A DNA stretch of 64,000 bases from contig JBFLYH010000001.1 of assembly GCA_040756875.1 (NCBI GenBank), positions 384,001 to 448,000 on the forward strand, in the 5' to 3' direction. Of this stretch, positions 3,001 to 24,000 are shown piece after piece. The stretch comes from a candidate division FCPU426 bacterium (GTDB lineage: Bacteria > Oederibacteriota > JAAXVQ01 > JAUVAV01). A program made the translations under genes and the position numbers. The notes below the pieces were generated by a model. That model did no database searches and was not told where the DNA came from. It saw only the letters and a program-made list of their open reading frames with translations. The first letter of the stretch is position 1. Each line of letters opens with the position of its first letter.

Positions 3001-6000
3001 CGACCCTGGAGACTCTTTCCATCAGCACCGAAGGCGAAGCTACCAACCACGCGGCGCGCTTCATCAAATACCTCCTGAATAATACGGTGCCGTTCCGGCT
3101 CGGACCGGCAGGCCCGCGGACCGAGTTCCGGAACAACCTCGCCCCGCAGGAACTGCCGCAAGAGACCCTGGCCACCCTGGCTGAAAAAGCGGGGTTGCAG
3201 GGGCCGCTGGTCTTCAAGGGAAACACCCTGGGCCGGAAAGTGATGTTTGAGGACCCCAGCGGACGGCAGCTGGTGGTCAAACTGAAAAAACGCGGGGAAG
3301 CCAACAACTGGCTGCAGCTGGAAGCCGAGAACATGCTCCGTTATGCCGGAGACTTCAAAGGCCAAGTCGTTCCCAAACCCGTGCTGATCGGCAAGGTTGA
3401 AGGCCGGCAAGAATACCGGTTCACCCTCCGTTTGCCGGCTGCCGAGGGAGCGGCGGACGTTCAGGCCAGCCTGCGCCGGAACGCCGAGGTCTCGGTGCGG
3501 GAGACCGGACGCGGGTTCGAGGCCGACGAGCCGCTGCAGGGCATTGCGTATGTGCTGGAACCCGGGGCCACCTATGACACCAATTTAGACCGCGAAACCG
3601 TGCCCGACTGGGCCGCGTATAAAACCGCGCTGGTGCGGTCGGCGCGCGAGCTGGGCCGCCTGGCACGGGCCGGGGTATTGCATATTTCGCTGGCGACCCT
3701 GTTCCACAATCTCAGCACGGACCGGGAATATATCGTCACCCGGCTGCTGGAGGATTCCACCTTCCCATATACCCTGGGCCGGATCACGGACTGGCTGGGC
3801 ACGGTTTTCGCCGTGAACCTGAGCCGCGACGGCCAGGTGCGGGATTTGAAATACCTGCGTTCCCTCACGGACGTAGCCAGTGATCCGAATTACAAGGTCG
3901 AAGACTGGCAATTCCTGCCCGCGGCTTTCGGCGATCAGGCGGACAGCGTCTATTTGCTCGAGTTCCTCGGCCGCTACGCTCTGGTGGAAACGCTGCTGGC
4001 CGGCGCCTGGCAGCGGGCCGACGGCTGGCAGCGGATTGACTGGCAGAAGGACGAGACCCTGTCCGACCTGGCTGGGTTGCTGCGGGACGTGTTCACGGCC
4101 CTGGCCGGGGAATTGCTGGGCGAAGACGAGTCAAGGACCGTGGCCGAATACGCGGGGCTGGTGGATTGGACCCAATACGCCCGGCAAATGGCTTTCTACA
4201 TGAGCAACGCCAACCTGGACTACCTGCGGCCCCGCCGGCGAAACCAGCTCGACAACCGGCACGACCGGTTTCCCATGGAGCAGCTGTACGGGGTCCCCCG
4301 GAGCCGCCTGGACATCGACGAATACCGCGACCACTGGAACGACGAGGTCGGCTTTACCGGCGACCTGTCGGAGGGCAGCCATGCGGCCGAACGCCCCTCG
4401 ATCGGCCCCTTCAACGGCCCCATGCTGATCACCGAGTTCGGCACGGCCATGAGTTATGTCCTGGGGTTGGCCGTGGCGCAAAAAGCCATGGGACCCGAGG
4501 CGCAAGCCGCGGAGCCCTCCGTTCCGGCCGGGGCCACGCTGACCGAACGCTGGCGGCGAAGCCTGGCCTGGCTGCGCGTTACCGCCCCGGAGGCCGTAGC
4601 CCTGGTCCGCGCCTGGTCGAATTCCAGCAGCCTGCGCAATACCTTTGTGATGGTGCCTTTCTTATATCTGATGCCCCTGGGACTCAGCCTGCGCGATCTC
4701 CTGTTTATCTATCCGGTCGTGGCCATGGCTTCCCTGGCTTATTTTGCCCTGCGCGGCGGCGAAAAGAACTACATGCTGACGTACCCCGGCCGGCTCCAGC
4801 CGGTATACGCCCTGATGGCCAGGCTGCCCGGAATCAGGGCGCTGCTCGAACGCGGGGTGACGATCAATGACATCGGCCCCGGCTGGCCGATGCTCACCAC
4901 CGGCGAGCTGGCGTCCTTTGCCCGGTCGCTCAATCCGGCGAACCGGGTTATTGCCAGCGAGCGGCCCGGACGCGTTCCGGCTTTCGTGTTGTGGAGCGAA
5001 GCCGGCGGCAACTACGCGCTCTTCAACCGGGAGGGAAGGCTGCTGGAAGTATTCGCGGAAGAAGGAGCGGTGATCAGGAAAGGCCCGCTGGCGCGCTGGA
5101 ACGCAGCCAGGATCTTCCGCAGCCTGCGGCGCCAGCCGGACAGCAGGCCGGGATATATTTTGGAAGCCGTGCGGACCGAGGAAGAACTGGAACGGGGCGG
5201 GTTCGAACTGAACGAGGCGGATTTCGGCGGCGGAGTCAAAGCCGGCATCAAGCTCTGTTTCAACATGCTTTATATGTATCCGAACCAGGCACTGGCGAAG
5301 CTGCAGGAGATGGGCAAGGACTTGGAAGAGGGCGGGTATCTTCTGGCGGGCCAGAGCGTCAGCTGGGCCGGCAGCGGAACGTACATCCAGGTCTACCGCA
5401 AACAAGGCGGCGAGCTTCGGCCCCTGCAAGGCGACTTGAATCTGAACGGCGGCTGGTATTCGTTCTCCATGCAGGCGTTCACGCTCGCCCAGAGCGCGCG
5501 CATGCTGGAAGTTTACTACGAATTCACTTCCAGGCGGCAGGGATATGAGACCGACGAAATGATCCTGGACCTCAGGGCCGCGGCCCTGCCGCATGATTTG
5601 GACATCACCGGGTTCAAAGCAAGCCAGACAACCGCCGGCGAAAAACGCGGCCAGCCCGCCAAGCAGGGTCGGGGAACGTTCCTCGGCCTGGACTCGCTCT
5701 CTTTCCGCCTGGCGCGCTGGTTCGCGCCCCCGGCGCCGGCCCTGACCGGCATCCAGGAAATGTTGGCCGAGGAGTTGGGGGAAAAATATCCCGGGCTGTC
5801 CGCCCTGGAACGGAACCGGATCCGCGGGGCTTTGGCCGCCATGGCCCTGGACATTGACAACGCCAAGCAGCTCACGCAGCTGCTGAGGGCCTATTTCATC
5901 ACCTCCGCAAACGTGGTGCCGGCCCTGGAAGGGATCGCCGGAATTGCAGCCGGAACGGAGCCCGCGCAAACCGCCGCAAGCTTGAAGAACCTGGCCCGGC

Positions 6001-9000
6001 TTTTTCAACTGCCGGTCATGCGGCGCGCCAATGCCGTGGGCGTGCTGGGTGAGGCGGCCCAGGCCTGCCGGCAGGCCCCCCGGGAAGCCGCGCCGCGCCT
6101 GCTGGCCTCCCTCGTCCGTTTGCTGGAACTGACGCCCGCGCTGGAAAACGAGACGCCGGGCAAATCGGTCCGGGTGCTCGCGAGCCTGCGCCTCGCGGCC
6201 GAGTCCCTGGGCCGCGACGATTTCGAGGATTATCTGAACGAACTGTACGACCTCTACGCCTTCCATCAGGACGACCTGTTCGTTCTGTTGGACGGCATGC
6301 TGGCCGCGGCCCGGGCCGCCGGACCCCTGGCCGGCCTGGCGGCCTTCAAGAGCCTGCGCACCATGGTGGTTTATTACCGCGATTACCAAAAACAACTCTC
6401 GGTCGCGGAAGCCCTGGACAGGATCCGTCAGGCCTACGCCGATATCCGCAGGACCACGGACGATCCCCTGACGCTCGTGGCGGCGCTGACCGCGATCCGC
6501 GTCCGCAGCCAGTGGAACCGGGATTTGCGCACCCGGACCCCGCTGGAAATCATCGGGGAAGTGGCCGGTGTTTGCAGGGAAGAAGGGAAGAACGCCCTGC
6601 GGGTTATCCTGCGGGCCGAATCCGGGGTGGACAACCTGGTCATCGGCGATTTCGGCGATGCTCCCTCCAAAATGGGCTTGTTCATCCAATATCTGCTACA
6701 AAGCCTGCCCGCGTTGCACCGGCCGGTTCCGGCCGGGTTTCCCCTGACCGTCAAACCGATGTCAGGGCCGATCGCGCGCCTGACGCCGGACGCGCTGGCC
6801 GTGCGGGCCGGACTGCAAGGCCCGCTCCGGTTCGAGCGCGCCCTGGGGAGGAGCCTGGTATTCCGCGACCAACGGGGCGCCCAGCTGGTGATCAAGCTGC
6901 GAAAGCTGCGGGAGAGCGAGGACAGCCTGCAGCAGGAATGCGAGCGGTTTGCCTGGGTTCGCCAGCAGGGCCTCCTGCCCGGGACACCGCAGCCGGTTTC
7001 CGCAGGCGAAGGCGGGGAATACCGGTTTGAATTGGACCTGCCGGGGCTGGACGAATCCCTGCGCCGGGCCGTGGCCGGGGCCCTGGCAGAAGAACAGCGG
7101 CAGGCGTCCCAACACAAAGGTGCCGGGTTTCAAGTGCATTCCGGACGGCAGGCGATCGCTTATGTCCTGGAACCGGACAGCCGCTACATGTCCTATCTGA
7201 ATCCCGACGCGGTTGCGGATTGGGGCGTGCTCAACCGCGGCTTGCGCCGGGTGATGCGCACCTTGGGCCGTCTGGCGGGCCGGGGCTGGCTCCACACCAC
7301 GCCGGCGGATCTGTTCCACAACGTGGAGGAAAACCGCCCCTACGTCACCACCGTGGGTCTGGGCCAGATCTTCGCGCGCGTCTCGGCGCGCACCATGGGA
7401 CGCATTGCGGCCTGGCTGGAATCGGGCTGGACCATGAACTGGGACCAGGACGGCGGACTGCGGGATTATAAATACTTCAAGCACATCTCCGAAACGGCGT
7501 CCCTGCCGGAACTGCGGTCCGAGGATTGGACTTTCCTGGAGGCGTTTCGCGGCAAGATCGAAATGGTCTATCTGTTGGAGACGCTGACCCGCGCGGCGCT
7601 CGCGGGCCTGCTGGTCCAGGGCGAATGGCTGGACCGGAAGCAGTGGGCCGGATTGGACTGGCGAAACGACGGGCAACTGCAGCCGCTGGCCCGGGACCTG
7701 CGCGCCCTGTTTGCCAGCGCCGCGGAAGGGCTCCTGACAGAGGGACCCCGTGCGCCGAACCTTGAACAGGTCCTGGATGCGGTGGACTGGACCGCTTTCG
7801 CCCGGCAGATGGTCTTTTGGATGAATCCGGCGAATTATGCCGAAGCCATGGCCGAGCCGGCTTCCGGCCAGGCGGACCAACGAACCCGTTTCCTGCTGGA
7901 AAACCGGCTGATTGACCTGCCGGAGCACATGGTTCACTTCAATCATTATTTGCCGGGTACGTACCGACCGGGCATCGGTTTTGTCGGGACCCCGGCCGAG
8001 GACAGCCTGGGCCGGTTGCGTTCACTGGGCCCGGTCAACGGGCCGCTGCCCATCACCGAGTTCGCCACGGCCGCCTATTCGGTTTTCGGCCTGGCGCTGG
8101 CGCAACTGGCCCTGGAGGAACGGCAGGCTGAGCAGGCGCGCGCGGCAAAAAAGACCCTGTGGGCCAGAACCGGCCTCGACCGCCTCGTGGACCTGGATGC
8201 GCTCTTCCTCCGCCAGGCCCCCTGGCAGACAGGGCCGCTGAAGAATTCCGCGGCGCTGCTTCGCTTCGCCGCCAACTGGGTGGCGCCCAAGGTGGAAACC
8301 GGCCGGGTCGTGCTGGGGACCGCCGGGTTTTATCTGGGGTTCATGCTGCTGGGAATGAGCCCCTTCTGGGCCGGGCCGCTGGCTGTGCTGCTGACCAACG
8401 CCATCTTCGCGGTCTCGCACTTTTCCGGCGTGTTCGCCTCGGCCGGAGCGGATGAAACCGGCGTTCCATATATATACTTCAAGCGCTTCGAAACCTTTTC
8501 CCAGCGCCTGGCGGCCTGGGGCAGACTCTTTGTGCTGGGCTTGGGGTTCCATTTCGTTTTTTACGCGGCCGTGGTGCTGGCGCCCTGGAGCCAGAATGCC
8601 CAGGCCGAGCTGTCTGTCCAGATGCTGGGGTTGTTCGGGATTTATGCTTCGCATTACCTGCACCGGGCCTTCAACCGCCTGATCCTGGATCAGCCCGGCC
8701 GCGTCCCGGCTGCTTTGCGTTTCCTGGCCATGACCGGCTGGCACGAGCCGCTGGATCCCCGGCAGGTGGCTGACTGCGAGCAGGCCATCCAAAATCTGGC
8801 CGGCCCGGGCCTGGCCGTGCAGCCCAGGGACGAGAATCGCTTTTACCGTACCCTGAGCCGGCAATTCCCGGCGGCTGTGATCGAACAGGCTTTGCGCAAT
8901 TTGTACGCCCGCCAGCCGCTCGCCCTGCCCACACTGGCCACCGAAATCCGGGCGGTCCTGGCGCGGACCGGCTGGCTCGATACGGCGGCCGCCGACCGCG

Positions 9001-12000
9001 AGCTGCAGGCCCTGCCGTTCATCGCCCGGACCGAGCAGGCCTGCCTTGAAATCCTGCTGGCCCGGATCCGCAATCTGCATCCCACGCCGACCAAAACCGG
9101 CCAGCCTTATTTGTTCAGCGAATACGAGCAGGCCGAAATCCGGCGCAAAGGCCCCGAGGCTTTTGCCGGGCACATCGGGCTGTGGCCGTATCTCAACCAA
9201 GAAGCCAAGGCAGGTTATACCCTCGACCCCCGCGCCCTCATGCTCGTGCACGTGAACGACATCGGCCTGGAGGAATTGCAGGCCCTGGTGAACCTGTTCA
9301 AAGGCGCGGAGAGCCCCCGGGAAAATCCGGAGATCATCAGCGGGCGAGCCGCGGTCAAGATTCTGGGACGCCACCGCCCCTTGGACGAGACCCGCCGTCT
9401 GGTCGAATTCCTGCGCGGAGTCCCCATGCCGGACGGCAACCGGCTGGCGGTTTCACAAACCGTCATAAGCGTGTGGCTGGAAAGCCGGTTGTCAGAAGGT
9501 GAGATCACGGACCTGCTGACCGCCCAGCCTGGTTTGGCGCATTTGAGCAAGGAAAAGGCCGAAAAATATCTTGCCCAGCGCTATATGGACCAGCGGGTGA
9601 AGCAAAACCAGAACCTGCGGCAGCGGGCCGTCAAGCTGATCAAGCGGATGGCCGAAAGGGACTTGTTGGATGAAGCCGGTGCCTTGGCCGGCCTGGCGAC
9701 CGTGACCACCCGCCAGGCCGCCCTGGCCAAGAAAATCGACCGCGGCAAGGGCCTCGAGGCCGATGCCATCGGGCTGATTTTGGACGCCCTGCAGGAACGC
9801 TTTGGCCGGCGCCTGACCCCGGGGCAGGTGCAGTTCGTGGCTGAACGCCTGTCTTGGGACAGGCTCGAGGCCAAACTCGACCTGATCGAGCGGCTCTTTA
9901 CCGTGAAAGAGCTGGAAGGAGTCGGCGGCGAACCGCTGGCTGCCGCGCTGGTTTCGGGCAAGCCGGATCAGGAAGTGCTCGGGCTGATCGTCTCCTACCA
10001 TGGCGAGTCGGCCATCGAGCTGCGCAATGTCATCTACAGCCCCCATCCGCTGGCGAAAATCAAGCAATTGCACGACGACATGGAACTGTACGGCATGCCG
10101 TCCAACACCCGCGCCCGCGGGTACAGCGCGGCCCGTTCCCGGATCATCGACGAAATCCTGGAGCGCATCGACCGCAGCGGTATGGAGGATGCGCTGGCCG
10201 GACAGTTTTTCCGCGAAGTCACGAACAAGCAGCGGCTGTTGTTGAGCACGCTGCTCGCCCTCTTAAGCGAGGAGTCTGTGACGCCCGAGGAACTGCCGGA
10301 CTTCCTGCGCGTTTTCGTGTCCGCTGAAAACCAGGCCGAACTGGCCGGAGAACTGCTGTGGCACTACCAGGACGGCTCGCCCCTGAACCGGAGCGCGCAG
10401 GAGCGGGGCGACGCCAAGGCGGCGCGCGAACTGCTGCTGCGCTTGCACGGCACGGAAAGCCTGACCCTGCTGACGTCCCTGCTCTTGGACGGCCAGGCCG
10501 GGCCGGCCGAGACCGCGCGGCTCAAGCTGCTGCAAATGCAGGACTCGGGCGAGCTGCGGCTCAACCGCGTGCGCGAGTACCTGCGCCGCTACGGCCCGTC
10601 GCGCCTGCGCATTATGGTGGAAAAACTCATGCCCGAGCTGGGGACGCTGGTGCGCAGGATCCAGATCCTGGGGCAGATGCAGCGGCACGGCATGGACCCC
10701 TCCGGAATCGTTGCACTGGAGGCGGCCTGGCAGACCGGCTGGCTGCCGCGCGAGGATCTGCGGGACGCCGCGGAAATCACGCCCCTGCAGTTTTTCCTTT
10801 TGCTGCCGGGCATGGCCGAGACCCTGGACGACCTGCCGGAAGACGCCTACCAGGCGGTGTTGGAGCTGGCGGTCCGGCTGTACGCGGACCAGCAGCGCCA
10901 GGGGGACCCGCAGGCCCTGGCGCGGGTGGACAACCTGCTCGCCGGCATGGAACCCTGCCGGTTCGCGGATGACTGGCTCGGCATCATGGAAGCCAGCCGG
11001 CTGGCTTCCGCCCATCCCCGGTTCGGCGGCAGGCCGTTCAGCGACGCCTTCTTCTTCCACGTCCTGCAATCCCGCTGGCTGGATGATTCCCTGGTCGGCT
11101 ACGGCTTGATGCTGGCCCATGGGCGGGATTTCAGGCCGGCCGAAGAAAAGATTTGGGACGCCAGCCGCCGCATCGGCACAGTCGACCCCTTGCTCCAGTG
11201 GGTGCGGGCCCTGCGGGCCGGGTTGCCACAGGCGGACCGGCAAACCGCGCTGGAGTGGATGAACGGGCAGCAGGCGGAACTGGAGCGGATCGGGCCGGAT
11301 TGGATCCGCTGGCTGCTGGATTGGCTGCCTGAACACCGCCTGATGCCCGAGGAATTCAAACAGGACTACGAGGAATGGCCCAAGCTGTTCCAGTTGCGCC
11401 AGGAATTCCTGGCCCTGCCCATTGACGTGCAAATGGCGGCCGTGGATGTCTGGGCCGGCCGCCAGCTGTCCTACGGCCTGGCCGCGCAAATCAAGCACGC
11501 CCTGGCCAGGGAGAATGCGGCCCAATCCGGGTTCGTCGCAGCCATACAAACCGTCAGGCGCCTGACGGCCGAACAAGGATGGAATGAATCCAGCCAAGTG
11601 GATTGGCAAGCCCTGGTGCAATCTGCGCCCGGACAAGTCGTGAGCTTGAATGCCGAACGGGCGGTGGCCAGACTGGTGCGCGCCCCGCTGGCGGACCGGC
11701 GCTTGCGCCAGGTCATTCGCAGCAACCAAAGCCGCCTTGCCGGCGGGGAGGAAGCCCTGCTCAACCAATTCGACCGCATGCCCGCCGCCAGCCGGGACGA
11801 GGCGACGGTCATCCGGGCCGTGCTGCAGGCCTTGCAGATTGACGGGCAGTCCTGGCTGGAGAACACGGACATCGAACGCATTGCGGCGCTGGGGCTGGAC
11901 GCCTTCCTGCGCAAGCGCCGTCTGTGGGGCGCGCTCAACGCCTACCCGCGCCCGCCCAGCGGGACGCTGGTCGCGGCCTGCCTGCTGTCGGAAAAATCCG

Positions 12001-15000
12001 CGGCCCGGCTCCTCCGCGACCTGGATGTCTATTACCTGCTGGACCTGATAGCGCGGAACGGCTCGTCGCTCCTCGAACCGGCGGAGTTGCGCCGCAAAGT
12101 CCAGGCCGCCGAGCCGATGGGGTCCAGGACTGCGCTGCAGACGCTGGTCGGAACCATCGGCGCCCTGCCTGAAAACAACTGGCCCGAGGAAAACGTCCGG
12201 GCCGCTTTTCTGGCTGAGCCGGTCCGGGAGTTTCCAGCCGGCCAAATCATCCGCGACCTGGAAACCAACCGCGAAGTCCTTCAGCGCCGCATCAGCCCGG
12301 CCCGTTTCGTGATAAAAACCGTGAAAAAACTCTACGCCCGCCGGCTGCCGAAGGCGGCGCCGGTCGCGCCGCCGGAGATTTCCGGATTCCTGACCCTGCT
12401 GCAGAACGAAGGCCTGGCGGACGAAAGCCTGGTTGATGACCTGCTTTCCGATTACCGCCAGCAGCGCGACGATCCCGTGGTGATCGTTAAAATCCTGGAA
12501 AGCATGGTGGAAGACGAGGAGTTCTCCCTGGCGTCCGGGAAAATCCTGTCCCTCGCGGCCAAACTGAAGCTGGCCGACCTGCGGGACCTCTTTGTCCGTG
12601 CCAGGGAAACGGCCGGGAGAAAATCGGACTATGAGGTCATGGTGGCCGCGGTCATGGAAGCCGCGGGCCTGAAACGCAAAATCTCCGAGGAAGAACTCGA
12701 TGCGCGCATCCGGGCGGACGTCATGAGCCGGAGGCAGGAAAAGGAAGAATCGGTCTTCGGCGAGCTGCGCTCGGATTTGGGCGGCGAACGGCCGGAAGAC
12801 AGGGCGAATAAAATCCTCAACGGCGGGGACCTGAAAATCCGTTTGGGCCGGATGCTGCTGAATCTTCTGGCTTCCGGCCTGGCCGCCGGGCTGTCTGCGG
12901 CCCTGAGCCCGGCGGGCGTGCACTGGCCGGTTTTCGTGCTCCTGGGCGTGTTCGCCGGCCTGGTCTTCAGCGGCGTGCGCCTGCTGTACTGGGCGTGGTT
13001 GTGGCGCGTGCCGCCTCCCGGCCTGTTGACCCGGCCGCTGCTGGCGCGCGGCCAGGAAAAGCTGGCGCTGCAATTCGAAGGCCTCAGGCAGGAACTCGGG
13101 CGCCGCGGGGTGGACACTGACCGGCTGCAGCTGGGCTGGATCGCGGACGAACAGCCGCTCGGCTGGGATGAAATCCTGCCAAGGCCAGAAGCGTGGGGGA
13201 CCTGGTTCCGGCTCCCGGCCGGCTGGCGCGGAAAACTGGGCGCCATCCGCCTGGGAAGAGGCGAGGGCGACCGGGTGCTGGTCCATCCCCTGGTCATGTT
13301 CCTGCCGGCCTGGGCGCAGCGCGCTATTTTGACGCATGAAATATATGAAGCGCAGGGCGCGGGACACTGGCGCGCCACCTGGGCGGAATTCGGGGGCGTG
13401 TTGCGTTTCCTGGCTGCGGCCGCGGTTCTGAGAATGCGCGGGGAAGCGCCGGTCTCGGATCAGCCCCGCCCCGCGGCCGCGCCGCTCGGCATGTATCCGG
13501 CCATGATTGAACTCACCTCGCGGGTCATGCCGCGGCTCCTGGGACGGATCATGCCGCAGAACGAAATATATATGTACAGCGCCCTGGTGACCGCGCCCTT
13601 GCTGGAATCCCTGTCCGTGGTGTTTATCATCGCCGCCAACCTGCTCCATGCCTTCAACGCCTTGCCGTTTGATCCGCGTTTGACCTGGCCGGCGGCGGTC
13701 ATCTTCACCAATTTAGTCTACGCCCTGGGCCACGGCTTCGGCGCCTATGAAGTGCGGCGGAAACCCGAATCCAAGCTGGTCGAGATCGTGCCCGTGACGG
13801 TCAGGACCTGGCAGGGCCGCATTAAAAACTGGGGTCGCTTCTACCTGCTGGGCCTGTCCTTCCACGGGTTGTTTTACCTGGGCCTCCTGCTGGCCCCGTT
13901 TGCCCACGAACCGCTCGCCCACGCAGCCGCGCTGGTCTTCATGGTGCTGGGCGCCATTGCCGCGCCCTTCCTGCACCGCTCGTACCATCAATCCGTGCTG
14001 CGCAAACCGGAGGATTATCCAGCCTGGCTGCGCGTGCTGGGCATGGTCGGCGCGAGCGGGGAAATCGCCGGAACCATTCCAGCGGGGATCGGAAGTCAGG
14101 CCGCGGAAACGGCTCCCGAAACCTCGCCCCTGACCCTGGAAACCCAAGCGCCGTTCCTGCGCTCCCAGCTCCTGCAAGACCGCGTGCTCGATGCGCTGGA
14201 GGCCCTGGGCGGCCGGGCCACGCTCGAGGAACTGGCCAGGGTCCTGCGCCGCACCCAGGCTCCGGTGCGCAAGGCGGTGCGGCGGCTGGATTTCGAAGAA
14301 ATCAACCGGGTGCGCGAGGCCAAGGGAAAAATGCCGCTGTATCCCGTGCTGCCGGCCCGGACCAAGCTGGTCCAGGACGAGATCATCGCCGCGCTGGAGG
14401 CTTTGGCCGGAATCGCCGAACCCGCGGAGATCGCGGCCTTTAGCGGCCAATATGTGACGGTCACGCGCCAGGCCCTGCGGGAAATGGATTTCAATCTGCT
14501 GAACCGCATGCGCGCGGCGCGGGGCCTGGCGCCCCTGACCGTCATCCTGCGGCGGGGAACGCCGGAACAGGTCGGCATCAACCGCAGCAGTTTGTCCGTG
14601 GATATCGGCGATTTGAACGGCCTGGTTGCGGAACTGGCAGCCCGAATTCCCAACCCTGCCCCGGCTCCGTACGCGGACCTCTATGCGCGGATTGCATTGC
14701 CTCTCCTGGTTTCCGCGTCCTTCCGGCTGGCGCCGCAGACCGGCGATCCCGAGGCCGACGCCCGCAACCGCGAGGATTTCCTGCGCGCCCTGAGCCAGTC
14801 GCTGGCAGACCTGGTTGCCAAACCCGAAGGCCCCTTTGCCGTGCTGGCTGCGGACCCGATCCTGGCCCGGATCTTTTGGGCCTTGTTGGTTCCTCGGGCG
14901 CTCATGATGACCGCCGGCGGGGAAGCGGCCGCCGGATTTTCCCTGGCGGCGTTTGAGCGGAATTTGGAAACCGTCCTGGCTCATTATCAAAGCCGGAGCA

Positions 15001-18000
15001 AACAACCGCTTCAGCCCATGTCCGTGGAGTTCGGCGGTTTGGGCCGGATCATCCGAGCCGGCGAACGTTTCCGGTCGCTGCGCCGGCAGGCCGGGGACGG
15101 GCAGCCCTATGCGTTTGCGGGCAAGGCTGATCTGCAGTCTATGTACGCCGAAAGGGTCCGCCAGGCTCCGGCTGGGCCCGCAGCGCAAACGGCGGCGCTG
15201 TCCGGCGACCATTCGGAAATCGTCAAGTCGCGGTTTGTGACGTGGCGGCAGACCGGGACCGGTCTCTTGCCCGGGGATTACCTCGAATTCGAGTTGACGC
15301 CGGGCCGGAACAAAACCCTGACCTACCAGAATGCGAGCGCAGTCTTCTCGTTCAAAACCCTGGCCGCGGCCGCGTCCTTCCAGGCGGTATTGGTGGCCGA
15401 GGAGGATCCGAACCACGGGTTGGTGGTCAATGCCTACCGCCGCGAAGCCTTCCTGTCCGGCGACTGGACCCAGCCCGTCAAAACCTTCAGGCATGCGTTC
15501 GGGGAGAACCCGTTCAATCTGGCTGCGGCGGATGTGGCCAAGGCCTTCTATTCTCCGGAGGAACTGGCCCTGCAGGGCAGGCCCTATGCGACCCGGCTGA
15601 CCGAAAAAGGCCTGGTGGATTACCACCTCCCCCTGGAACCCGGCGCCGCCGCGCTGCCGGTGAAGATGATCGTGCCGGAAAAACGGTTCAGCCAGGGGGG
15701 CCTGGCCAAGGCCGAGGTGGTTTGCCGGGTGGAAAACGATCCGAACCAGGGCCAGATCATCAACACCTATCTGGCCGAGGATTTCAAGGCCGGCCGCGTG
15801 GACGCACCCCTCATGACGTACGCCATCCTGCGCGCAGGCCGCCACGCCGAACTGGTTGACAACCTGGCCCGGCTGGACATTTTAGCTGCCAGGGAAGGCA
15901 AGCCGCTGGCGCTGTTAGGGCGGGAGTTTGAAACCAGCCTGAAAATACAGACCGTTACCGGGAATCCCTACGCCTGGTTCTCGGTCGAATGGCGGGGCCG
16001 GTTCGCGCGCTTCAGCATCCCGGCCAGAACGCTCGCGCCCGAGGTGCTGGCTGCGCCGGTCAAGGTCCGCGTGGAAACGGATGAGGTTTTGGGCCAAGTG
16101 GTCCGCGTTTATTCCACGCACACCCTCCAGGGGCAGCCGCTGCTGCTGCGGACCTTCCAGTATCCGGTCGCAGCGGAAGCGCCGGCAACCGGCGGAGCCG
16201 AAGAAACCGTCCCGGCCCAAGCTCAAGCCGGGGAACAACCGGAGGCCGGCCTGGTTGAATGGGTTCGTCTGCTGGAACAGGAAAACCTGATCGGGAAAGA
16301 GACGGCCGTTGCCGTGGTGCAGGGACAAGACCGCGAGGCCGAAAAAACCGCGCTGCGGGAATTGCTCGAAACGCTGAATGATGAAGAAGTCCTGCAGCTG
16401 GGCATCGGGACGATCCGCGAAAAATCGTCCCAGGTCCCGTTGCGCGAGGTGCTGCGGGCGTTCCTGGCCCTGCGCGCCGGGGAAGCGGAAGCCGACGACT
16501 TCGAACTCATCACCGCGGCGGTCAAGCAGGCCATCGGCTACAAGGAACCCAAGTACAGCCGGGAGGAAGTGGCGGCGCGGATTACGGCCAGCATCAGGGA
16601 AAAATCTCTGCAGGAAAGGCCGGAAAGCGCCAGCGCGTTTTTCGATATGCAGCCGCAGGGCGACGCCCGCCGCAACCGGGCGGAATTCGAGCAAATCAAC
16701 AACGGCTCAACCAAGTTGGGCGACCTCGGCGGCCTGATGCCCTGGCTGCGGCAGCTGCTGGTGGAACGCCTGGGCTGGATGCAGGACGCCACGTACGTAA
16801 AATGGGCCTGGGCCATCGAGGCCGTGCCCATGGGCATCGCCGGCCTGGCCGCGGCCGCGATCGCGGCCTGGACCGGGTTCTTCGACCCCGCAGCCGGACT
16901 CGAAGCCTTCGCGCTCCTGGCGGTCCGCCTGGCCTGGGGCCTGTTCCCAATCCTGCACTTGATCGTGAACGGCCGGCTGACCTGGCAGGGCCTGACCGGC
17001 ACCGAAAAAACCAATGCCGTCCTCGCGCTCGCCCTGGCAGCCGTGAACCTGGCCGCTTCGCTCGCGCCGGTTCCGCTCTGGAACCTCCTGGTGTTCGGCC
17101 TGGCTTCCCACGCCGGGCTTAATGCATGGCTCAGGCTGTCACCCTGGCAGTTCAGGCTCCGGAGCCCTGTGCGTGTGCTGCAGCTGGGCACGCCGGACGG
17201 CGTTTTCAGCCTGCCCTGGCCTGTGCTCCAATCCCCAATTGTGATGATGAATTCCCTCCGGAACAACGGGGGCAACGGCCCGCAACTGCTGCGCTCCCAA
17301 CTGCTGCAGGACCGGATCCTCGACGCGCTCGAAGCCCTGGGCGGCAGGGCCACGATCGAAGACATCGCGGCCGTTGTCCGCCGGGGGCATTCGCGGGTGA
17401 ATGAAACCGTTAAAAAACTGGATTTCAAGGCGATCAACCGCCAGCGCCTGCTGGACGGCCGGATGCCCTTGTTCCCGCCGGTCAACGCCAAAACCATGCT
17501 GGTCCAGGACGAAATCATCGCGGCCATGGAGATGCTCGGCGGCATCGCGGCGCAGCGGGAAATCATCCGGTACAGCGGGCTGGACCGGCAAACCGTTTCC
17601 CGGACCTTGAAGGCCATGGATTTCGGATTGATCAACGGGATCCGCGAAGCCCGGGGGCTGTTCCCGCTGCTGGTGATCCATGCGGACGCCCCGGCCTACC
17701 GCTTTGACGACGCCAAAGCCAGCCGGGATACGACCCTGCAGGAGGACGTGCTCGCCGGCCTGACCGAAGACTTTGGAACCGCCCAGGCCGGACTGTTCGG
17801 GCGGACGATCCTGCCCTGGCTGCTGCACGTTTCGCAGGCCACGGTTCCGGCCGTTGAAGACGATGTGATGATGCAGATCAACCGCGAGGATCTGGTCTAT
17901 ATCATCATGCGCGCTTGCCGGACCCGGTTTGAGACGATGATGGCTGATTGGAGGGCGAAAAATCCCGCGGCGACCCGGCGGCAGGAGGCGGGGCTTTTCC

Positions 18001-21000
18001 GCGCCTATTGGGGCGTGCTGGTGCCGCGCGCCTTGAACGCCGCCTGGCCGCAGTTCCTCGCCTTGCGGCTGGATGACGAACAATACTTGGATTTTGAGAA
18101 CACCCGGGTCGAGGAAGCATTTGCCGCCAGTCTGGATAAAACGGTAAGGCAGTTCGAGGGCAAAAGCGTGGTCGCGGTCGCGCGCGTGTCCGTGGACTTC
18201 AACGCGGAGCATAGGCTCGCCGAGGCGGCCGCCCATTACCAGGCCCTGCGCCGGCAAGCCGGAGACACGGAACCGTACGCCCAATTGGATGCGCGGGCCT
18301 TGGAAGCCTATTACGCCGGCCGCCAGGCGGCCGAACAGGCCGAAACCCCCGCGGGCGCCGGCCAACTGAAACCCGGCCATCCGCTGGCAGCGCACCTACT
18401 GAAGGTGCATCCGGAGCTGCTGCGGTCGCATTTGGTTGCCTGGTACCAAGCGGGCAGGGAACCGCAACCCGGCGAATACTTGCTGACCACGATCTACCCC
18501 GGAAAAACCAAGCATGTCTATCATCAGGACCAGCAGGCGTTTTTCTCCTTTATCACCCTCGCGGACAACCGCAAAGCCATCAAAACGGTTTTCCTGGTTG
18601 AACGCGACCCCAACCACGGGGTGGTGGTGAATGTCTATGAGGAGGACAAGTTCTTCCGCGGCAACTGGTCCCAGCCGCTCGGCACCTTTAAATTCGGGCC
18701 CCACGGCAGCCTCTTCGAGCCCGCGGCAGCCGACATCATCAAGGCGTTCCACCACCTGCAGGCCCTGCAGGTTTACGGGCGGCCGCTCGCGGCCCGGATC
18801 CGCGCGAACGGAGCCGTAGGGTTCACGTTCAGCCCGGATAACGCCTCGCCCAACTTGCCGGTTCGAATGACCGTTCCCGCGGACCTCATGCGGGAGCGGG
18901 ATCTGGCGGGCCGGGAAGCGGTTTGCTCGGCCGAAGAAGACCCCAACCACGGGCCGATCGTCCAGATCCGGCTGGCCGGCGCCTCGGATGAATTGCTGGT
19001 CAGTTATGTCTGGCACGAAGGCAAGCAAGCCTCGCTCCCGGTGGATTCGCTCAGCCGCCTGGACATCCTTGCGGCCAAGGAAGGCAGGCGGCTGTCCGAA
19101 TACAACCGAGAGTTCAGGACCCGCTTTTCGCAGCATGTGATCGGCGGCCTGCCGTACGGCATCTGCGAGGTCAAATGGCAGGGCAAGTCCTTCCGGACTT
19201 CGTTCCCGTGCAAGGACCTGCCGCCCGAGGTTCTGCAAGCCGGCCTGGTTTTGCGCGTGGCGCCGGACGCTTCGCCTGAAAACCAGGTGGTCGAAATTTA
19301 TTCGGCCCTTGGATACGGCCAGCCGCAAACCAGAAGGTTGCTGAAAGAAGTCTCGCTCCCCGTCGCCGCCGAGGCGCGGGCGTTGCCGAAGGCGCCGGAA
19401 ATCCCCGCCGCCTGGGTGGATGCCTCGCAAGTTTTCGCCGGCCTGGCGGAGCAACTGCAAGCCGCGGATCTTCCCGAGCCCCAGGCTGTCCTGGCCCGGA
19501 CCCGCTTGGCCCGGGTGCTGGCCAGGATGCATTCGAACATGACCAGTTTGCTGGCCGGCGGACTGGACTGGAACGACAGGGCAGCGGTTCAGCAGGCGCA
19601 AAACCTTCGGTGGTACGCCCGGCAGCTGACCAACGCCCTGGAAACCGCGCTGGGCCGGGAAACTGATGCCGCTGCATTCAGCCTGTATGAACAGCTCGGC
19701 CAGCTGCTTTCAACCTACCGCGCGCAAATGACGGAAGCTGCGGCGGTGTATTCCGGCGACACCGTGGCTGATGTGAAAGACGCCCTGGCAGGCGGCCTGG
19801 ATCATCTGGCCGTGGCCCTGCGCCGCCTGGATATGCGGCGCGCCGCCCTCCGGAAACAGCAACAAAAATCAGCGGCCGCGCAGCCGGTCCGACTGACCCT
19901 GCCCTCGACCGAAGTCCTGGCCGGCCCAGAGGCCAAAGGCCTGGCCGCAGTCCTGGTGCGGCGGCTGGGCGAATGGGGCATCGCGCTGGTCGAGGAGCTC
20001 GGGCTCGGCACGTCGGGGAAGAACATCGCCGCCTTCGCGGCGGTGAGGACCGACGTGCGGCTGCGCACGGTCTGGGAGGCGCTCCGGCAGGGCAGGCTCC
20101 TGCCGGCCGCGGGTGCGGCCGGTTGGCTGGCCCTGGCTTTCATGACCGCCGTGAACCCAGTCCTGCTGGCTGCCCTGGCGCCCTTGCTGCTGATCGGCCT
20201 GGGCTGGACGCAGATCGAGTATGCCGCCGGGCACCTGAATACAGACCGCGCCGAGTGGGTCGGCCGCCTGCGGGCCACCTTGCTGTTCAACGCGGTGGCC
20301 GTGGGAACCGCGCTGCTCCTGGCCGGAGCGGCCGTGGCTTTCCTCAGCGGGCCGGCCCTGGCCGGCGCCCTGCTGGCCGCGCCCCTGGCCGGCGTCCTCG
20401 CGAGCACCGCGGTCCACCGGCTTTGGAACCTGCGCGCGCCGCCCAACCTGCGGATGACGCAAGGCAAGGTCGGGATCCAGACCCTGACCGCCTGGCGGCC
20501 GGATGCAACCCTGCTGGCCGGCGATCCGACGGCCTATTATTCGCGGTTGGTGGAGACCGCGCCCACGTCCGGCCTCCGCAATTTCCTGCTTTACGATTCC
20601 GAATCCGGAAACCTGCGGGCTTTCTTCCTCAAACTGAAACCCGGCTGGCTGGTGGCCCATGACCCGGACCTGCTGGCCGCCATGTTCATTAGCGGCATCT
20701 TCGGCCCGGAGTGCCGGCTGGCGCATCGGCCGGGCGTGGGCGTGTTTCTGTACTGGCAGGACGAGGCCCGGCGGGTGATCCGGGAGAATGCCGACCTTTT
20801 TTCCGAATTATTGGGCCAGCCGCCGCAGAGCCTGTCCGATCAGGCGCTCGACGCGGCGCTGCCCGGCCTGCTGAGGCGCCTCATGAGCATGGACGCCCTG
20901 AGCGGGGACTGGCAGTACCCGGCCCAGGTGGGCCTGCTGCTGGGCTTCCCGCGGGCCGAGGCCCTCAACTACGCGCGCTACGACCAGCAGATTGACGAGG

Positions 21001-24000
21001 TTTACAGCCTGCTTCTGAAGCAGCCGCTGACCGCCGAGGAACAGCGCGTGGTGGCGATTTATCATCAGCCGCGCCTCGATTACCGCAACGTGCATCTGCG
21101 CGGCGCCTTGAACCAGGCCCACGTGGCCCGGCGTTCGTACCTGCGCGCGGCCATGGCCGGGATTCTGGAACGCTATCTGCCGGATCTGCCGCCCGGGCTC
21201 CGCAATTCAGTCCTGGACGAGCGCCTGGTCAGCGTGCAGGGCAGCTTCTACATGCTGGCGCATACGCCGGCGGGCCCGGCGTTCTGGGCCGCGGTGGCGC
21301 GCCGGTTCCGCGATACGGGCATGGAGTCGGCCGTGGAGCGGCTGCGGGCCCGTTATCCGTACGCGTCGGCGCTGGATCCGAGGGAAGTCCTGCGCGATCT
21401 GCTGGGCGAATTGGCTCGGGCCGGGATCCCGGGCGAAGAGCAGCGCATGATCCGCCTCTACCTCCGCTACCTGAGGCAGGGCAGCGAATTCGGCCTGCGC
21501 ATCCTCGCGCCCAAACTGACCCAATTGTTCCAGAAATACAATGTGTGGCTGGCCCAGGGCAGTTTCGATCCTGCGGCCAACGCCGCGGCCATCAACAACC
21601 TGTTGCAGGCGCGGCCAGGGCCGGTCCGGCGCTGGTTCAATCCTGGGGGGACCGGTGGGATGTTGGCCTTACTGCTTCTCCTGGGCGGCGGCTTCCTGCT
21701 GGCCAACCTGGATTGGGCCTGGGCCAGAGACCTCTCGCATACTTTAGCCGGCATGGGCTGGGGGCCGGAGCACAATCTGCTGCTGGGTTTTGTCACCTTC
21801 AACGGCCTGTCAAATCCCGACAGCCCGCAAGCGAACCGCAACATTATATATACGCGCCAGGGCAACCGCCTGGTGCCGGTGCCCGGGCCGTTCGGGAAAT
21901 ACCGCCTCGAAAGCATCAGCGACCATCCGGACGCAATCGTCAAAAACGCGGACCTGGACCAGCGGGGCGGTTTCCCGCGCGAACTCAGGGCCTGGTGGTC
22001 CAACCACCCGCTTGCCAACCGCACTGACCTGACCGCTGAATACAGCCAAGGCCGGCTGGTCCGGGTCTGGGCCGGGGACCCATATCCGGAGAACGACCTG
22101 GCCCGGCGGGATGCGGCCGTGCCGGTCGTTTGGTTCGCGGAACCACGGTGGGCGGAAGGCTGGGACGTGGTCGGCGAGAACCGGGTTTATGTGGCCGACG
22201 AAGCCGGCCGCCTGGCCATCCAGGCCGTGGCCGGCCGGGCATACACTCAGGAAATGGTGGAGCAGTACCCCGACGCCGTGGTCAAGGGCGACAGCCTCAA
22301 CCACAAGGGCGGGCTGAAGCACGGCGGCGGCCTGGTGTGGGACGCGCGGCCTGAGTTTGCTTTCCAGGATGTCACGATTGAATACCGCGGAAAACGCGTG
22401 GTGCGGGTGTGGCTCGGCGATCCCTATCCTGACCATGACCGCAACCGGCCGGACCTGGACGCGCCCCTGATCTGGTTCGATCCCGCGGTCGGGGCGGGTG
22501 AATTCACGCCCCTGGGCCGGAACGTGGTGTATGTGGCCGAAGGCAACCGCCTGGTTGCCCAACGGATCGCGGGCGGCACTTACACCGAAGCCGACGTGGC
22601 GCTGCAACCCGACGCCATCGTCAAACTGGCGGCGTTCGACTCCAAGGGCGGTTTCAAGCACGGTGGCGTCAGGCGCTGGTGGAACCTGGTCGGATACGGG
22701 GACCGGCCGGACATCACCGCGGAATACCGGCAGGGTAAGCTGGTGCGGGTGTGGGACGGCGACCCGTATCCTGAAAACGACCTGTCCCGGCCCAGCCAGG
22801 ACGTTTCTCTGCTCTGGTTTGACAGCCCAGCCGACGCTGACGGCTGGTCCCTGGCCGGCCGCAACGTGGTCTATGTGCCGTCCGAGGGGCGCCTGGTGCC
22901 GCAGGAAATCGCGGGCGCGCATTACGGGATAGACCGGGTGCAGCGGTATCCCGAGGCTGTGGTGAAGAACGTCCACACGGACAAAAAGGGCGGCCTGAAG
23001 CACGGCGGGGCCAGGTTGTGGTGGAACAAGACCGGGTTCGAGAACCGCACGGACCTGACCGTAGTGTACCGGAACGGGCGCCTGGTTGAAGTGTGGGCCG
23101 GAGATCCCTACCCGGACAATACGCTCGACGTTTCGGCGCAGAAAGCCGAGCTGATCTGGCAGCCGGCCATGCCCGGGCCCCTGCAGGCGTTCAACCTGTT
23201 CCAGGCCGCGGCCGCCGCGTTCCTGCTGGCCGGCGCTTCGGCTGTCGGGCTGGCCCTGCTGGCCGCGCTGAGCTGGCCGGTCTGGGCCCTGGTCGCGGTT
23301 GGCGCGCTGCCCGGCGCAGGCGCGGCTTTCGCGCTGGTCCTGGCCGCGCAGGCCGGCCTGGCCTGGTTCGGACGCCTGGCTGCGCCGGCCACGGCGCCGG
23401 CTGACCCCGCGCTCCAAGCGCGCTATCGGGAGGCGTTCGCCGCCTGGCCGGATACGCACGTGTTCTTTACGGACAAGCTGCCGTGGCACCAACTGGCCAG
23501 GACGCGGCGCGAAGCGGACGACACCTGGACCGTCGAACTGGCCTCGTGGCTCGCCGGCCAGGCCAAGGCCAACACGCTGTTCGCCAAGCTGCAGCAAATG
23601 CTGCTGCCCATCATCACCACGCACGAGAACCTGCGGCGCGCGGGCTGGAACGGCTGGCGCGTGTATCTGGCCAAGCTGGGGCAGGCACCCACCTACGGCC
23701 GGGCCCGGCGGGCGGGCGAAACCGCGCCCGTGCCGGAAAAATCCGCGGCCGAGGAGATCGCCGGGCAACTGCTGGATCCGTCCGGCTCCAGAGAAGTGGT
23801 CATCACCGCGGATGACGGACAACGGTTCACTTTCAAGCTGGCCACTTCCTTGGCTGAACTGGACAGCTGGTTCTACATCGAGGCGCACCGGGATGGGGAA
23901 CTGATCGGTGAAGCGCATGTCACCGGCGGCAATCAAATGTTCCGCATCACCGGCCGGCCGGATGATGCGGCGATTTGGACGGACAAAACAGGGTACCGGG

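Follow-up and report, generated by a model that had tools for sequence, protein, structure and literature searches.

Four compact membrane modules were found in a giant protein of a candidate division FCPU426 bacterium, and each of them carries a set of polar residues that resembles the site of the CPBP (Rce1/Abi) intramembrane proteases. The modules lie in a window of 64,000 nucleotides (contig C1:384001-448000), the whole stretch of DNA that was analysed. All four belong to a single open reading frame (ORF) on the plus strand, at window positions 3-28943, which is open at the 5' end of the window; the window part of the ORF comprises 9646 residues, and the residue numbers of the modules given below count along this part. 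The four blocks are real, previously unannotated membrane modules with a CPBP-like polar site. They form three sequence families, termed here A, B and C, the polar residues are conserved within each family, and the modules are restricted to large ORFs. A function of these modules as proteases is plausible, and their layout gives a hint, short of proof, that giant proteins of this kind may cleave themselves.

Block 1 (type A) occupies window positions 8211..8738 on the plus strand (residues 2737-2912). This four-helix membrane module contains the motif APKVE with Glu 2765, the motif FAVSH with His 2806, an FH histidine in helix 3, and the motif HRAFN with His 2887 and Asn 2891, followed by LAMTG. 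Block 2, also of type A (13521..14051, plus strand, residues 4507-4683), has the same four-helix architecture in an AlphaFold2 model and contains Glu 4535, YALGH with His 4577, SFH with a histidine at 4621, and HRSYH with His 4658 and His 4662, followed by LGMVG. Block 3 (type B; 16740..17210, plus strand, residues 5580-5736) is a four-helix module as well, again from a model, and includes WAIEA with Glu 5606, FPILH with His 5652, an asparagine in helix 3, and SHAGLN with His 5703 and Asn 5707. In block 4 (type C; 19890..20510, plus strand, residues 6630-6836) the helices were assigned from hydropathy. Its LVEE motif with Glu 6664 and Glu 6665 lies ahead of helix 1 and is followed by YAAGH with His 6744, by LLFN with an asparagine in helix 3 and, in the fourth helix, by HRLWN with His 6805 and Asn 6809, then by LRMTQG.

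The original prediction, made from the sequence of the window, had described four hydrophobic blocks that share three spaced motifs and punctuate the giant protein. A hydropathy scan identified each block as a cluster of hydrophobic helices, and 15 of the 15 short motifs that had been listed were recovered at their nucleotide positions in the same reading frame. The three-motif pattern proved to be specific to the four blocks. With generous spacing it was written as the regular expression E.{25,90}[FY]...H.{40,100}H...[NH], which has 12 start positions in the complete frame of 12,551 residues, and all 12 fall inside the four blocks. When the residues of each block were shuffled 5000 times, the pattern arose with frequencies of 0.004, 0.022, 0.0002 and 0 for blocks 1 to 4, respectively. 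Blocks 3 and 4 contain just two histidines each, and in both blocks these are the motif histidines. The four modules are indeed present as punctuation, but they constitute only a subset of it, because at least five further transmembrane (TM) clusters identified by the hydropathy scan also separate soluble parts of the protein. The methionine-containing motif that had been noted after the blocks is likewise found where it was described, but it is conserved among close relatives only: LRxLGMxG is present in three of the six type-A copies that cover this stretch, LRMTQG in four of the nine type-C copies, and LQMKVG in a fifth. Because of this narrow conservation, the motif is a weak candidate for a cleavage site.

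The homology of blocks 1 and 2 was confirmed, with 31% identity over 177 columns and a BLASTP E-value of 3e-23. The four blocks are not one family, however, but represent three unrelated-looking sequence families: blocks 1 and 2 make up A, block 3 is of family B and block 4 of family C. Blocks 3 and 4 have no BLAST match at E ≤ 10 to blocks 1 and 2 or to each other. They do not match a hidden Markov model (HMM) of the two type-A blocks at E ≤ 10, even with the filters off (--max), nor a type-A profile of seven sequences at E ≤ 0.001.

The distribution of the three families was studied in 99 genomes of the phylum. Type A was found in four of these genomes, including the source genome, and type C in six (E ≤ 0.01). 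At the same threshold type B has matches in 10 genomes, two of which are weak, lie in short or stop-containing frames and were not counted as real. Strong matches to A, B and C come from only two taxonomic families, both in the same order. The open frames that contain the matches at E ≤ 1e-3 are all between 447 and 12,551 residues long. The shortest of them overlaps the frames just upstream and has the look of a fragment of a longer gene with a frameshift. No stand-alone gene for A, B or C was seen among the 99 genomes. A genome of the same genus has a 12,061-residue ORF (G001:C3:28206-64388) with four type-C copies, at 70-75% identity, one type-B module and no type-A module. Given such differing module sets in the giant genes of close relatives, the modules seem to be shuffled between the giant genes of this lineage.

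Searches beyond the phylum added little. An HMM of blocks 1 and 2 was compared with 1.84 billion representative proteins and gave two matches at E ≤ 1e-3. One of them is a true fragment of 116 residues, which was included in a type-A alignment; the other was rejected as a tandem-repeat artefact. A scan of the genomes of 185,579 species with a type-C pattern returned five loci in four genomes, all already known from the search of the phylum. No homologues of block 3 were found among longer proteins (276-2000 residues), which is weak evidence by the search tool's own grading. A resemblance of block 4 to the archaeal DUF1673 (best ESM Atlas score 0.82) was dropped as being below the level of more than a lead. 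Neither Pfam nor NCBIfam has a model for A, B or C, and within the searches made all three stay inside a single order of a candidate phylum. In Pfam searches with both halves of the window protein no family was above threshold, and at E ≤ 0.1 the only matches were sub-threshold ones to YrhC and MarR_2. The YrhC match falls on block 2 and was set aside (20.7 bits against a cut-off of 27). The NCBIfam search gave a SidJ-like match alone, outside the four blocks.

The polar residues were compared across 7 aligned copies of A, 13 of B and 9 of C, whose identity to the window copy is as low as 22-36%. The glutamate, the [FY]xxxH motif and the HxxxN motif are among the best-conserved polar positions in each family. 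In type A the glutamate is present in all six copies that cover it, the helix-2 histidine in 7/7, the helix-3 histidine in 6/7 and the helix-4 histidine in 7/7, and the residue four positions further is Asn in four copies, His in two and Gln in one. Type B retains the glutamate in 12/12 copies, the phenylalanine in 13/13, and the helix-2 histidine, the helix-3 asparagine and the helix-4 histidine in 12/13 each, followed at the +4 position by Asn (nine copies), His (two), Asp (one) or Lys (one). In type C the pair EE, the helix-2 histidine, the helix-3 asparagine, the helix-4 histidine, a tryptophan and the asparagine at +4 are all present in 9/9 copies. The residue at position -4 from the helix-2 histidine is Phe or Tyr in 6/7, 13/13 and 9/9 copies of A, B and C, respectively. 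In family B the glutamate, the two histidines and the helix-3 asparagine are alone among the polar positions in reaching a conservation of 90% or more.

One type-B copy is degenerate (G005:C40:7650-8250). Both of its histidines and the asparagine of the HxxxN motif are replaced (by Arg, Tyr and Lys), and the glutamate and the helix-3 asparagine are kept. Such a joint loss of His, His and Asn is the pattern expected when a joint active site decays. The proposed signature E/[FY]xxxH/HxxxN, invariant or nearly so in diverged copies of all three families, is thus no product of selective picking, but its assignment to the CPBP family has no sequence signal. A haem-binding bis-His bundle was also considered as an explanation of the conserved histidines and was set aside, as these residues, by our reading, lie at different depths in family B.

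The helical anatomy was derived from structural models of blocks 2 and 3 and from hydropathy. The AlphaFold2 model of block 2, based on an alignment of seven rows, has a predicted local distance difference test (pLDDT) score of 85 and a predicted template modelling (pTM) score of 0.78; it has four long helices, with a beta-hairpin separating the second from the third, and ends in a short helix. The block-3 model, based on 13 rows, has four membrane helices (pLDDT 81.6, pTM 0.69). As read from the sequences, Arg and Lys are abundant in types A, B and C on both flanks, N- and C-terminal, and in the loop that joins helix 2 to helix 3. According to the positive-inside rule, loops rich in Lys and Arg lie on the cytoplasmic side of the membrane, and we therefore infer that both ends of the module are cytoplasmic. 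By this reading, A, B and C would all be four-helix units with the N- and C-termini inside and with the polar residues towards the cytoplasmic side. The location of the glutamate varies: in A it is found in the middle of helix 1 and in B at the start of this helix, and in C it belongs to a segment that precedes helix 1 by about 30 residues.

This arrangement resembles that of known proteins of the CPBP (type II CAAX prenyl protease) family. Four helices make up the CPBP domain (TM4-7 in the myxosortase MrtX), and in both MrtX and MmRce1 TM4 carries EExxxR and TM7 carries HxxxN (PMC11980579). The motifs are also said to lie in "four core transmembrane segments" (PMC6588880). In MrtX, E146 and H188 hold a water molecule, and H223 and N227 form the oxyanion hole (PMC11980579). 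As in Rce1 and MrtX, each motif of the modules goes with a particular helix of a four-helix core: an acidic residue with the first, FxxxH with the second and HxxxN with the fourth. The order of the motifs, their assignment to helices 1, 2 and 4 and the i/i+4 spacings are alike, and the distance from Glu to His in block 2 is 42 residues, the same as from E146 to H188 in MrtX. All three families have the FxxxH-type motif on the next helix and the HxxxN/D (HxxxB) motif two helices further, with the helices taken from the models for A and B and from hydropathy for C. The modules differ from Rce1 in several respects. They have four helices, in contrast to the six core TM segments that ECOD gives for Rce1 and APH-1 (PMC6588880); in type A an inserted beta-hairpin separates helix 2 from helix 3; no sequence homology is detectable; and the EE pair of family C lies outside the helices and lacks the arginine. 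In addition, the modules are arranged serially within a protein of about 12,500 residues, whereas Rce1 and MrtX are stand-alone enzymes.

The block-2 model was aligned, without Foldseek, to 48,161 representative protein chains. As limited support for a CPBP-like fold, three of the five top-ranking chains belong to the CPBP/APH-1 group. The second rank is held by 6u0o_A, a chain of the SagB-SpdC entry that is not confirmed as SpdC (Z 6.2, root-mean-square deviation (rmsd) 5.1, 117 residues aligned), the third by 8oqz_C, the APH-1B subunit of gamma-secretase (Z 6.0, rmsd 4.2, 137 aligned), and the fifth by 4cad_C, which is Rce1 (Z 5.6, rmsd 3.9, 114 aligned). The nearest CPBP-fold neighbours of the block-2 model are 6u0o_A, from the SpdC/LyrA entry (6U0O), and the APH-1 chain 8oqz_C. 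In a second comparison, against 996 chains, 6u0o_A was at rank 1, and it is overlaid on a CAAX-protease homologue in PMC10811503. A glucosaminidase was sought in the source genome as a probe for chain A of 6U0O and none was found; a single CPBP probe matched nothing. In the Rce1 alignment, residues 13-177 of the model are placed on residues 125-251 of the chain, a range that includes 132-237, the stretch matched by a profile of 16 true CPBP proteins from this phylum. If the alignment is ungapped at both ends, simple arithmetic on these ranges, which is not a residue alignment, would place Glu29 of the model at Rce1 position 141 and His152 and His156 at positions 226 and 230. The catalytic residues of Rce1 are given as E140/E141 and H227/N231 (PMC10811503).

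A number of results weigh against a relationship with CPBP or against catalysis. At the sequence level, neither PF02517 nor any family of its clan was matched at E ≤ 10 by the four blocks or by the 29 copies of the families. When the genome was searched in six frames with PF02517, four ordinary CPBP genes came up, all of them outside the giant gene, and the profiles of A, B and C gave no match at E ≤ 10 among the sequences of the PDB. Profile-profile alignments (hhalign) of A, B and C with the 16 CPBP proteins of the same phylum yielded probabilities of 1.8%, 0.3% and 0.3%, respectively, and a second run for A yielded 1.0%. When the alignments were shuffled within blocks of 10 columns, the observed score against CPBP was reached in 5, 10 and 10 of 60 trials for A, B and C, and the scores between the families in 6, 4 and 3 of 60 trials. 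With no Pfam, NCBIfam or PDB sequence signal and with profile-profile scores within the shuffled nulls, membership of the CPBP family is not demonstrated. A pairing of the type-A helix-3 histidine with the CPBP HxxxN motif, which hhalign offered, was rejected, as a beta-hairpin would replace a membrane helix and the topology would be flipped.

The motifs and the structures supply further objections. The EExxxR motif, which had been noted as incomplete, is absent in its full form from all three families: the arginine is missing in A, B and C and the second glutamate in A and B. Families A and B have one conserved glutamate with no conserved Arg at +4 or +5. In family C the EE pair is invariant and lies ahead of the hydrophobic helices, and the [LF]G[LI]GT that comes next contains no Arg. 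The depth of HxxxN appears to differ: helix 4 ends with this motif in A and C, and in B the motif is mid-helix. Past helix 4, the alignments of A, B and C contain no position that is conserved throughout a family. In the comparison of block 2 with 48,161 chains, the first rank is held by SpoIIIAB, an unrelated soluble protein (Z 6.3), and Z scores of 5.6-6.2 are in the range that is common for helical bundles by the tool's own scale. The block-3 model has no CPBP-group entry (Rce1, SpdC or APH-1) among the 50 matches listed in either of two lists, and it has no CPBP-group match by Foldseek. Foldseek, which had been suggested along with the original prediction, produced nothing at E ≤ 1e-3 for the block-2 or the block-3 model. 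The Glu-Arg pair of EExxxR is described as a buried salt bridge in catalytic and non-catalytic CPBP proteins alike (10.64898/2026.10.04.756536, a preprint), and many CPBP proteins with intact motifs are non-catalytic scaffolds (PMC7387801; 10.64898/2026.10.04.756536).

The single most likely reading of these data, although short of an even chance, is that the modules are hydrolytic and CPBP-like, very remote relatives or mimics of the CPBP core, with a juxtamembrane linker of their own protein as the likeliest substrate. The compact four-helix modules would be embedded in one multi-pass protein with both ends of each module in the cytoplasm. The polar set of a module would comprise a glutamate at or just before helix 1, the [FY]xxxH histidine at that end of helix 2 which faces the cytoplasm, a helix-3 Asn or His, and HxxxN in the cytoplasmic part of helix 4. 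These residues may form a hydrolytic pocket that faces the cytoplasm, a CPBP core stripped down and without the full EExxxR. A near-invariant Glu, two His and Asn within the bilayer in three diverged families argue for a functional polar pocket, beyond a mere anchor. The substrate would be the juxtamembrane linker of the giant protein itself; since the modules are seen only within giant proteins, at the joints of soluble cassettes, this linker is the most economical substrate. The topology of the modules, a common fold with CPBP, catalysis and action in cis are predictions.

The main rival explanation, which is possible though somewhat doubtful, is that the modules are not catalytic but tether successive cytoplasmic cassettes to the membrane, and that the Glu/His/Asn cluster serves to bind a lipid head group or a metal ion, or to dock another segment or a partner protein. 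A His/His/Glu/Asn cluster at the membrane interface also resembles a metal site, and this resemblance, the absence of the full EExxxR from A, B and C and the lack of a conserved cleavage motif after helix 4 all fit such a role. So do published accounts that report or propose a role without proteolysis for several proteins of the CPBP fold, which often serves as a membrane scaffold, the examples being SpdC, APH-1, LnsB, Abx1 and CflP (PMC7387801; 10.64898/2026.10.04.756536). The nearest CPBP-group structural match of block 2 is the SagB-SpdC entry, and SpdC is described as almost certainly no protease (PMC7387801). However, known non-catalytic CPBP proteins have typically lost the catalytic residues, which here are near-invariant and are lost together in the lone degenerate copy. 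SpdC, LnsB, APH-1 and CflP are generally without them (CflP has Val in place of the catalytic Glu), whereas the present modules keep Glu, His, His and Asn.

It is unlikely that A, B and C are three unrelated four-helix anchors in which the polar residues stabilise helix packing and the order E...H...H...N is accidental. The lack of significant profile-profile similarity between the families or to CPBP is what such a coincidence would leave, as are the different positions of the glutamate, the generic helical-bundle matches of the block-3 model and the block-2 Z scores within the noise range of the tool. Yet A, B and C, three independent families, agree in the helices that carry the motifs, in the inferred leaflet and in the i/i+4 spacings ([FY]xxxH, HxxxN), and the hhalign alignment of A with B, non-significant as it is, has all three motifs in register over the full length. 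Three CPBP-group entries among the top five of 48,161 chains are also hard to obtain by chance, even among membrane bundles. Least probable of the readings considered, and very unlikely, is that trans-acting intramembrane proteases or immunity-type CPBP proteins were merely fused into the giant gene. The characterised CPBP proteases do cut other proteins, Rce1 acting on prenylated CAAX proteins and MrtX on MYXO-CTERM proteins (PMC11980579), but no stand-alone gene was seen in the 99 genomes of the phylum: their shortest good frame is the apparently frameshifted piece already mentioned, and the only match found outside the phylum is the 116-residue fragment.

The remainder of the giant protein is also modular. 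In the genome its frame is open from C1:375288. The likely start is an ATG at C1:375462, which has GGAG ahead of it and a hydrophobic, signal-like segment after it, giving a protein of about 12,490 residues. The giant gene has a G+C content of 0.65-0.68, compared with 0.51-0.61 in window positions 40000-64000 and 0.58-0.62 for the contigs of the genome. Homologues of carA, carB, gltB and gltD are located downstream of it. Beyond the four blocks, hydropathy revealed further TM clusters, one upstream of the window and others at residues 1551-1584, 4284-4331, 7215-7239 and 7732-7784. The first of those in the window (4653..4754, plus strand, residues 1551-1584) directly follows the second SidJ-like module, and residues 7215-7239 (21645..21719, plus strand) are a single TM helix. 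Weak Pfam matches to PAP2 and Cap15 on another TM cluster were set aside as sub-threshold.

Two of these clusters belong to a recurrent module, termed here "2TM + HE", which has three copies in the giant protein and consists of two TM helices, about 100 soluble residues and a conserved end similar to LLPIIxxHE....GW. The first copy is upstream of the window, at about C1:377385-378000 of the genome (L065, 2098-2880). The second (12852..13529, plus strand, TM residues 4284-4331) has the soluble stretch ILTHE...GAGHW and lies directly upstream of block 2. The third (23196..23759, plus strand, TM cluster at residues 7732-7784) has the stretch LLPIITTHE...GWNGW. The first and third copies match each other with an E-value of 1.4e-9, and the modules have no Pfam match at E ≤ 10. 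Similar stretches are present in two other genomes, three in the giant protein of G011 and two in an ORF of G005, and a copy is located directly upstream of a type-A module in both G000 and G005.

The soluble parts include three repeats of about 600 residues, identified by self-BLAST at window positions 378-2102, 2790-4661 and 6414-8267 on the plus strand (residues 126-700, 930-1553 and 2138-2755). They are 33-50% identical to one another, and the third ends where block 1 begins. Their three stretches match the NCBIfam model NF033874 (SidJ-related pseudokinase) with an E-value of 1.2e-28 and 100 bits against a cut-off of 300, so they resemble SidJ-related pseudokinases, which falls short of membership. 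Two more SidJ-like copies were seen in the translation upstream of the window, and five copies in one giant protein are unusual in themselves. A soluble module of about 700 residues is present in two copies within 14154..19451 on the plus strand, one after block 2 (14154-16259, residues 4718-5419) and one after block 3 (17286-19451, residues 5762-6483). The first 130 or so residues of the copies are 57% identical, and they have a weak match to MarR_2 (winged-helix; 16.8 bits, below the cut-off). The same module thus follows a type-A and a type-B block, despite the different families of these blocks. Window positions 21837-23159 encode four tandem repeats of about 114 residues, 40-52% identical, between the single TM helix and the next TM cluster. 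Because the single TM helix precedes them, these repeats may be on the other side of the membrane, perhaps as the sole part of the window protein there.

A relative in another genome (G007:C3:89001-97000, minus strand) shares an N-terminal "head" domain with the giant protein. The head is followed by a membrane stretch similar to Peptidase_M50 with the motif HEYSH (E-value 5.4e-5, 23.1 bits against a cut-off of 27.2), then by a PPDK_N domain (E-value 3.9e-29) and by overlapping frames, the last of which has a type-B module. From this arrangement, the head domain seems to be joined to different membrane-embedded peptidase-like units.

Giant proteins with embedded peptidase domains have been described in Omnitrophota. 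In that study (bioRxiv 10.1101/2023.11.21.568195), self-cleavage is proposed for giants with C39 and S8 peptidase domains, and whether bacterial giant proteins exist as one chain or as cut parts is stated as an open question. The Omnitrophota proteins are similar to the present one in being giant multi-pass membrane proteins whose embedded peptidase domains are proposed to yield several products. They differ in belonging to another phylum, in having SecA-like and carbohydrate-binding domains, and in the soluble folds of their peptidases; unlike the soluble C39 and S8 domains, the candidate peptidase here is the membrane module itself. The same study excluded TM regions from structure prediction. 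No paper that links CPBP-type modules with giant proteins was found in a limited literature search.

The three unannotated families with a protease-like Glu/His/His/Asn set can each be cloned as a piece of about 180 residues. If active, the modules would be smaller than any known CPBP-type core and the first such cores without the full EExxxR; if inactive, they would represent another conserved polar site in a scaffold-type membrane fold. We speculate that the giant protein could be a membrane-threaded polyprotein that is cut at the cytoplasmic face by its own minimal, CPBP-like glutamic peptidase modules, which thereby release or re-anchor its successive cassettes (SidJ-like pseudokinases, winged-helix modules and others). 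This proposal in full is quite unlikely. If it is true, the three families would be new intramembrane self-processing elements that are shuffled between the giant genes of this lineage.

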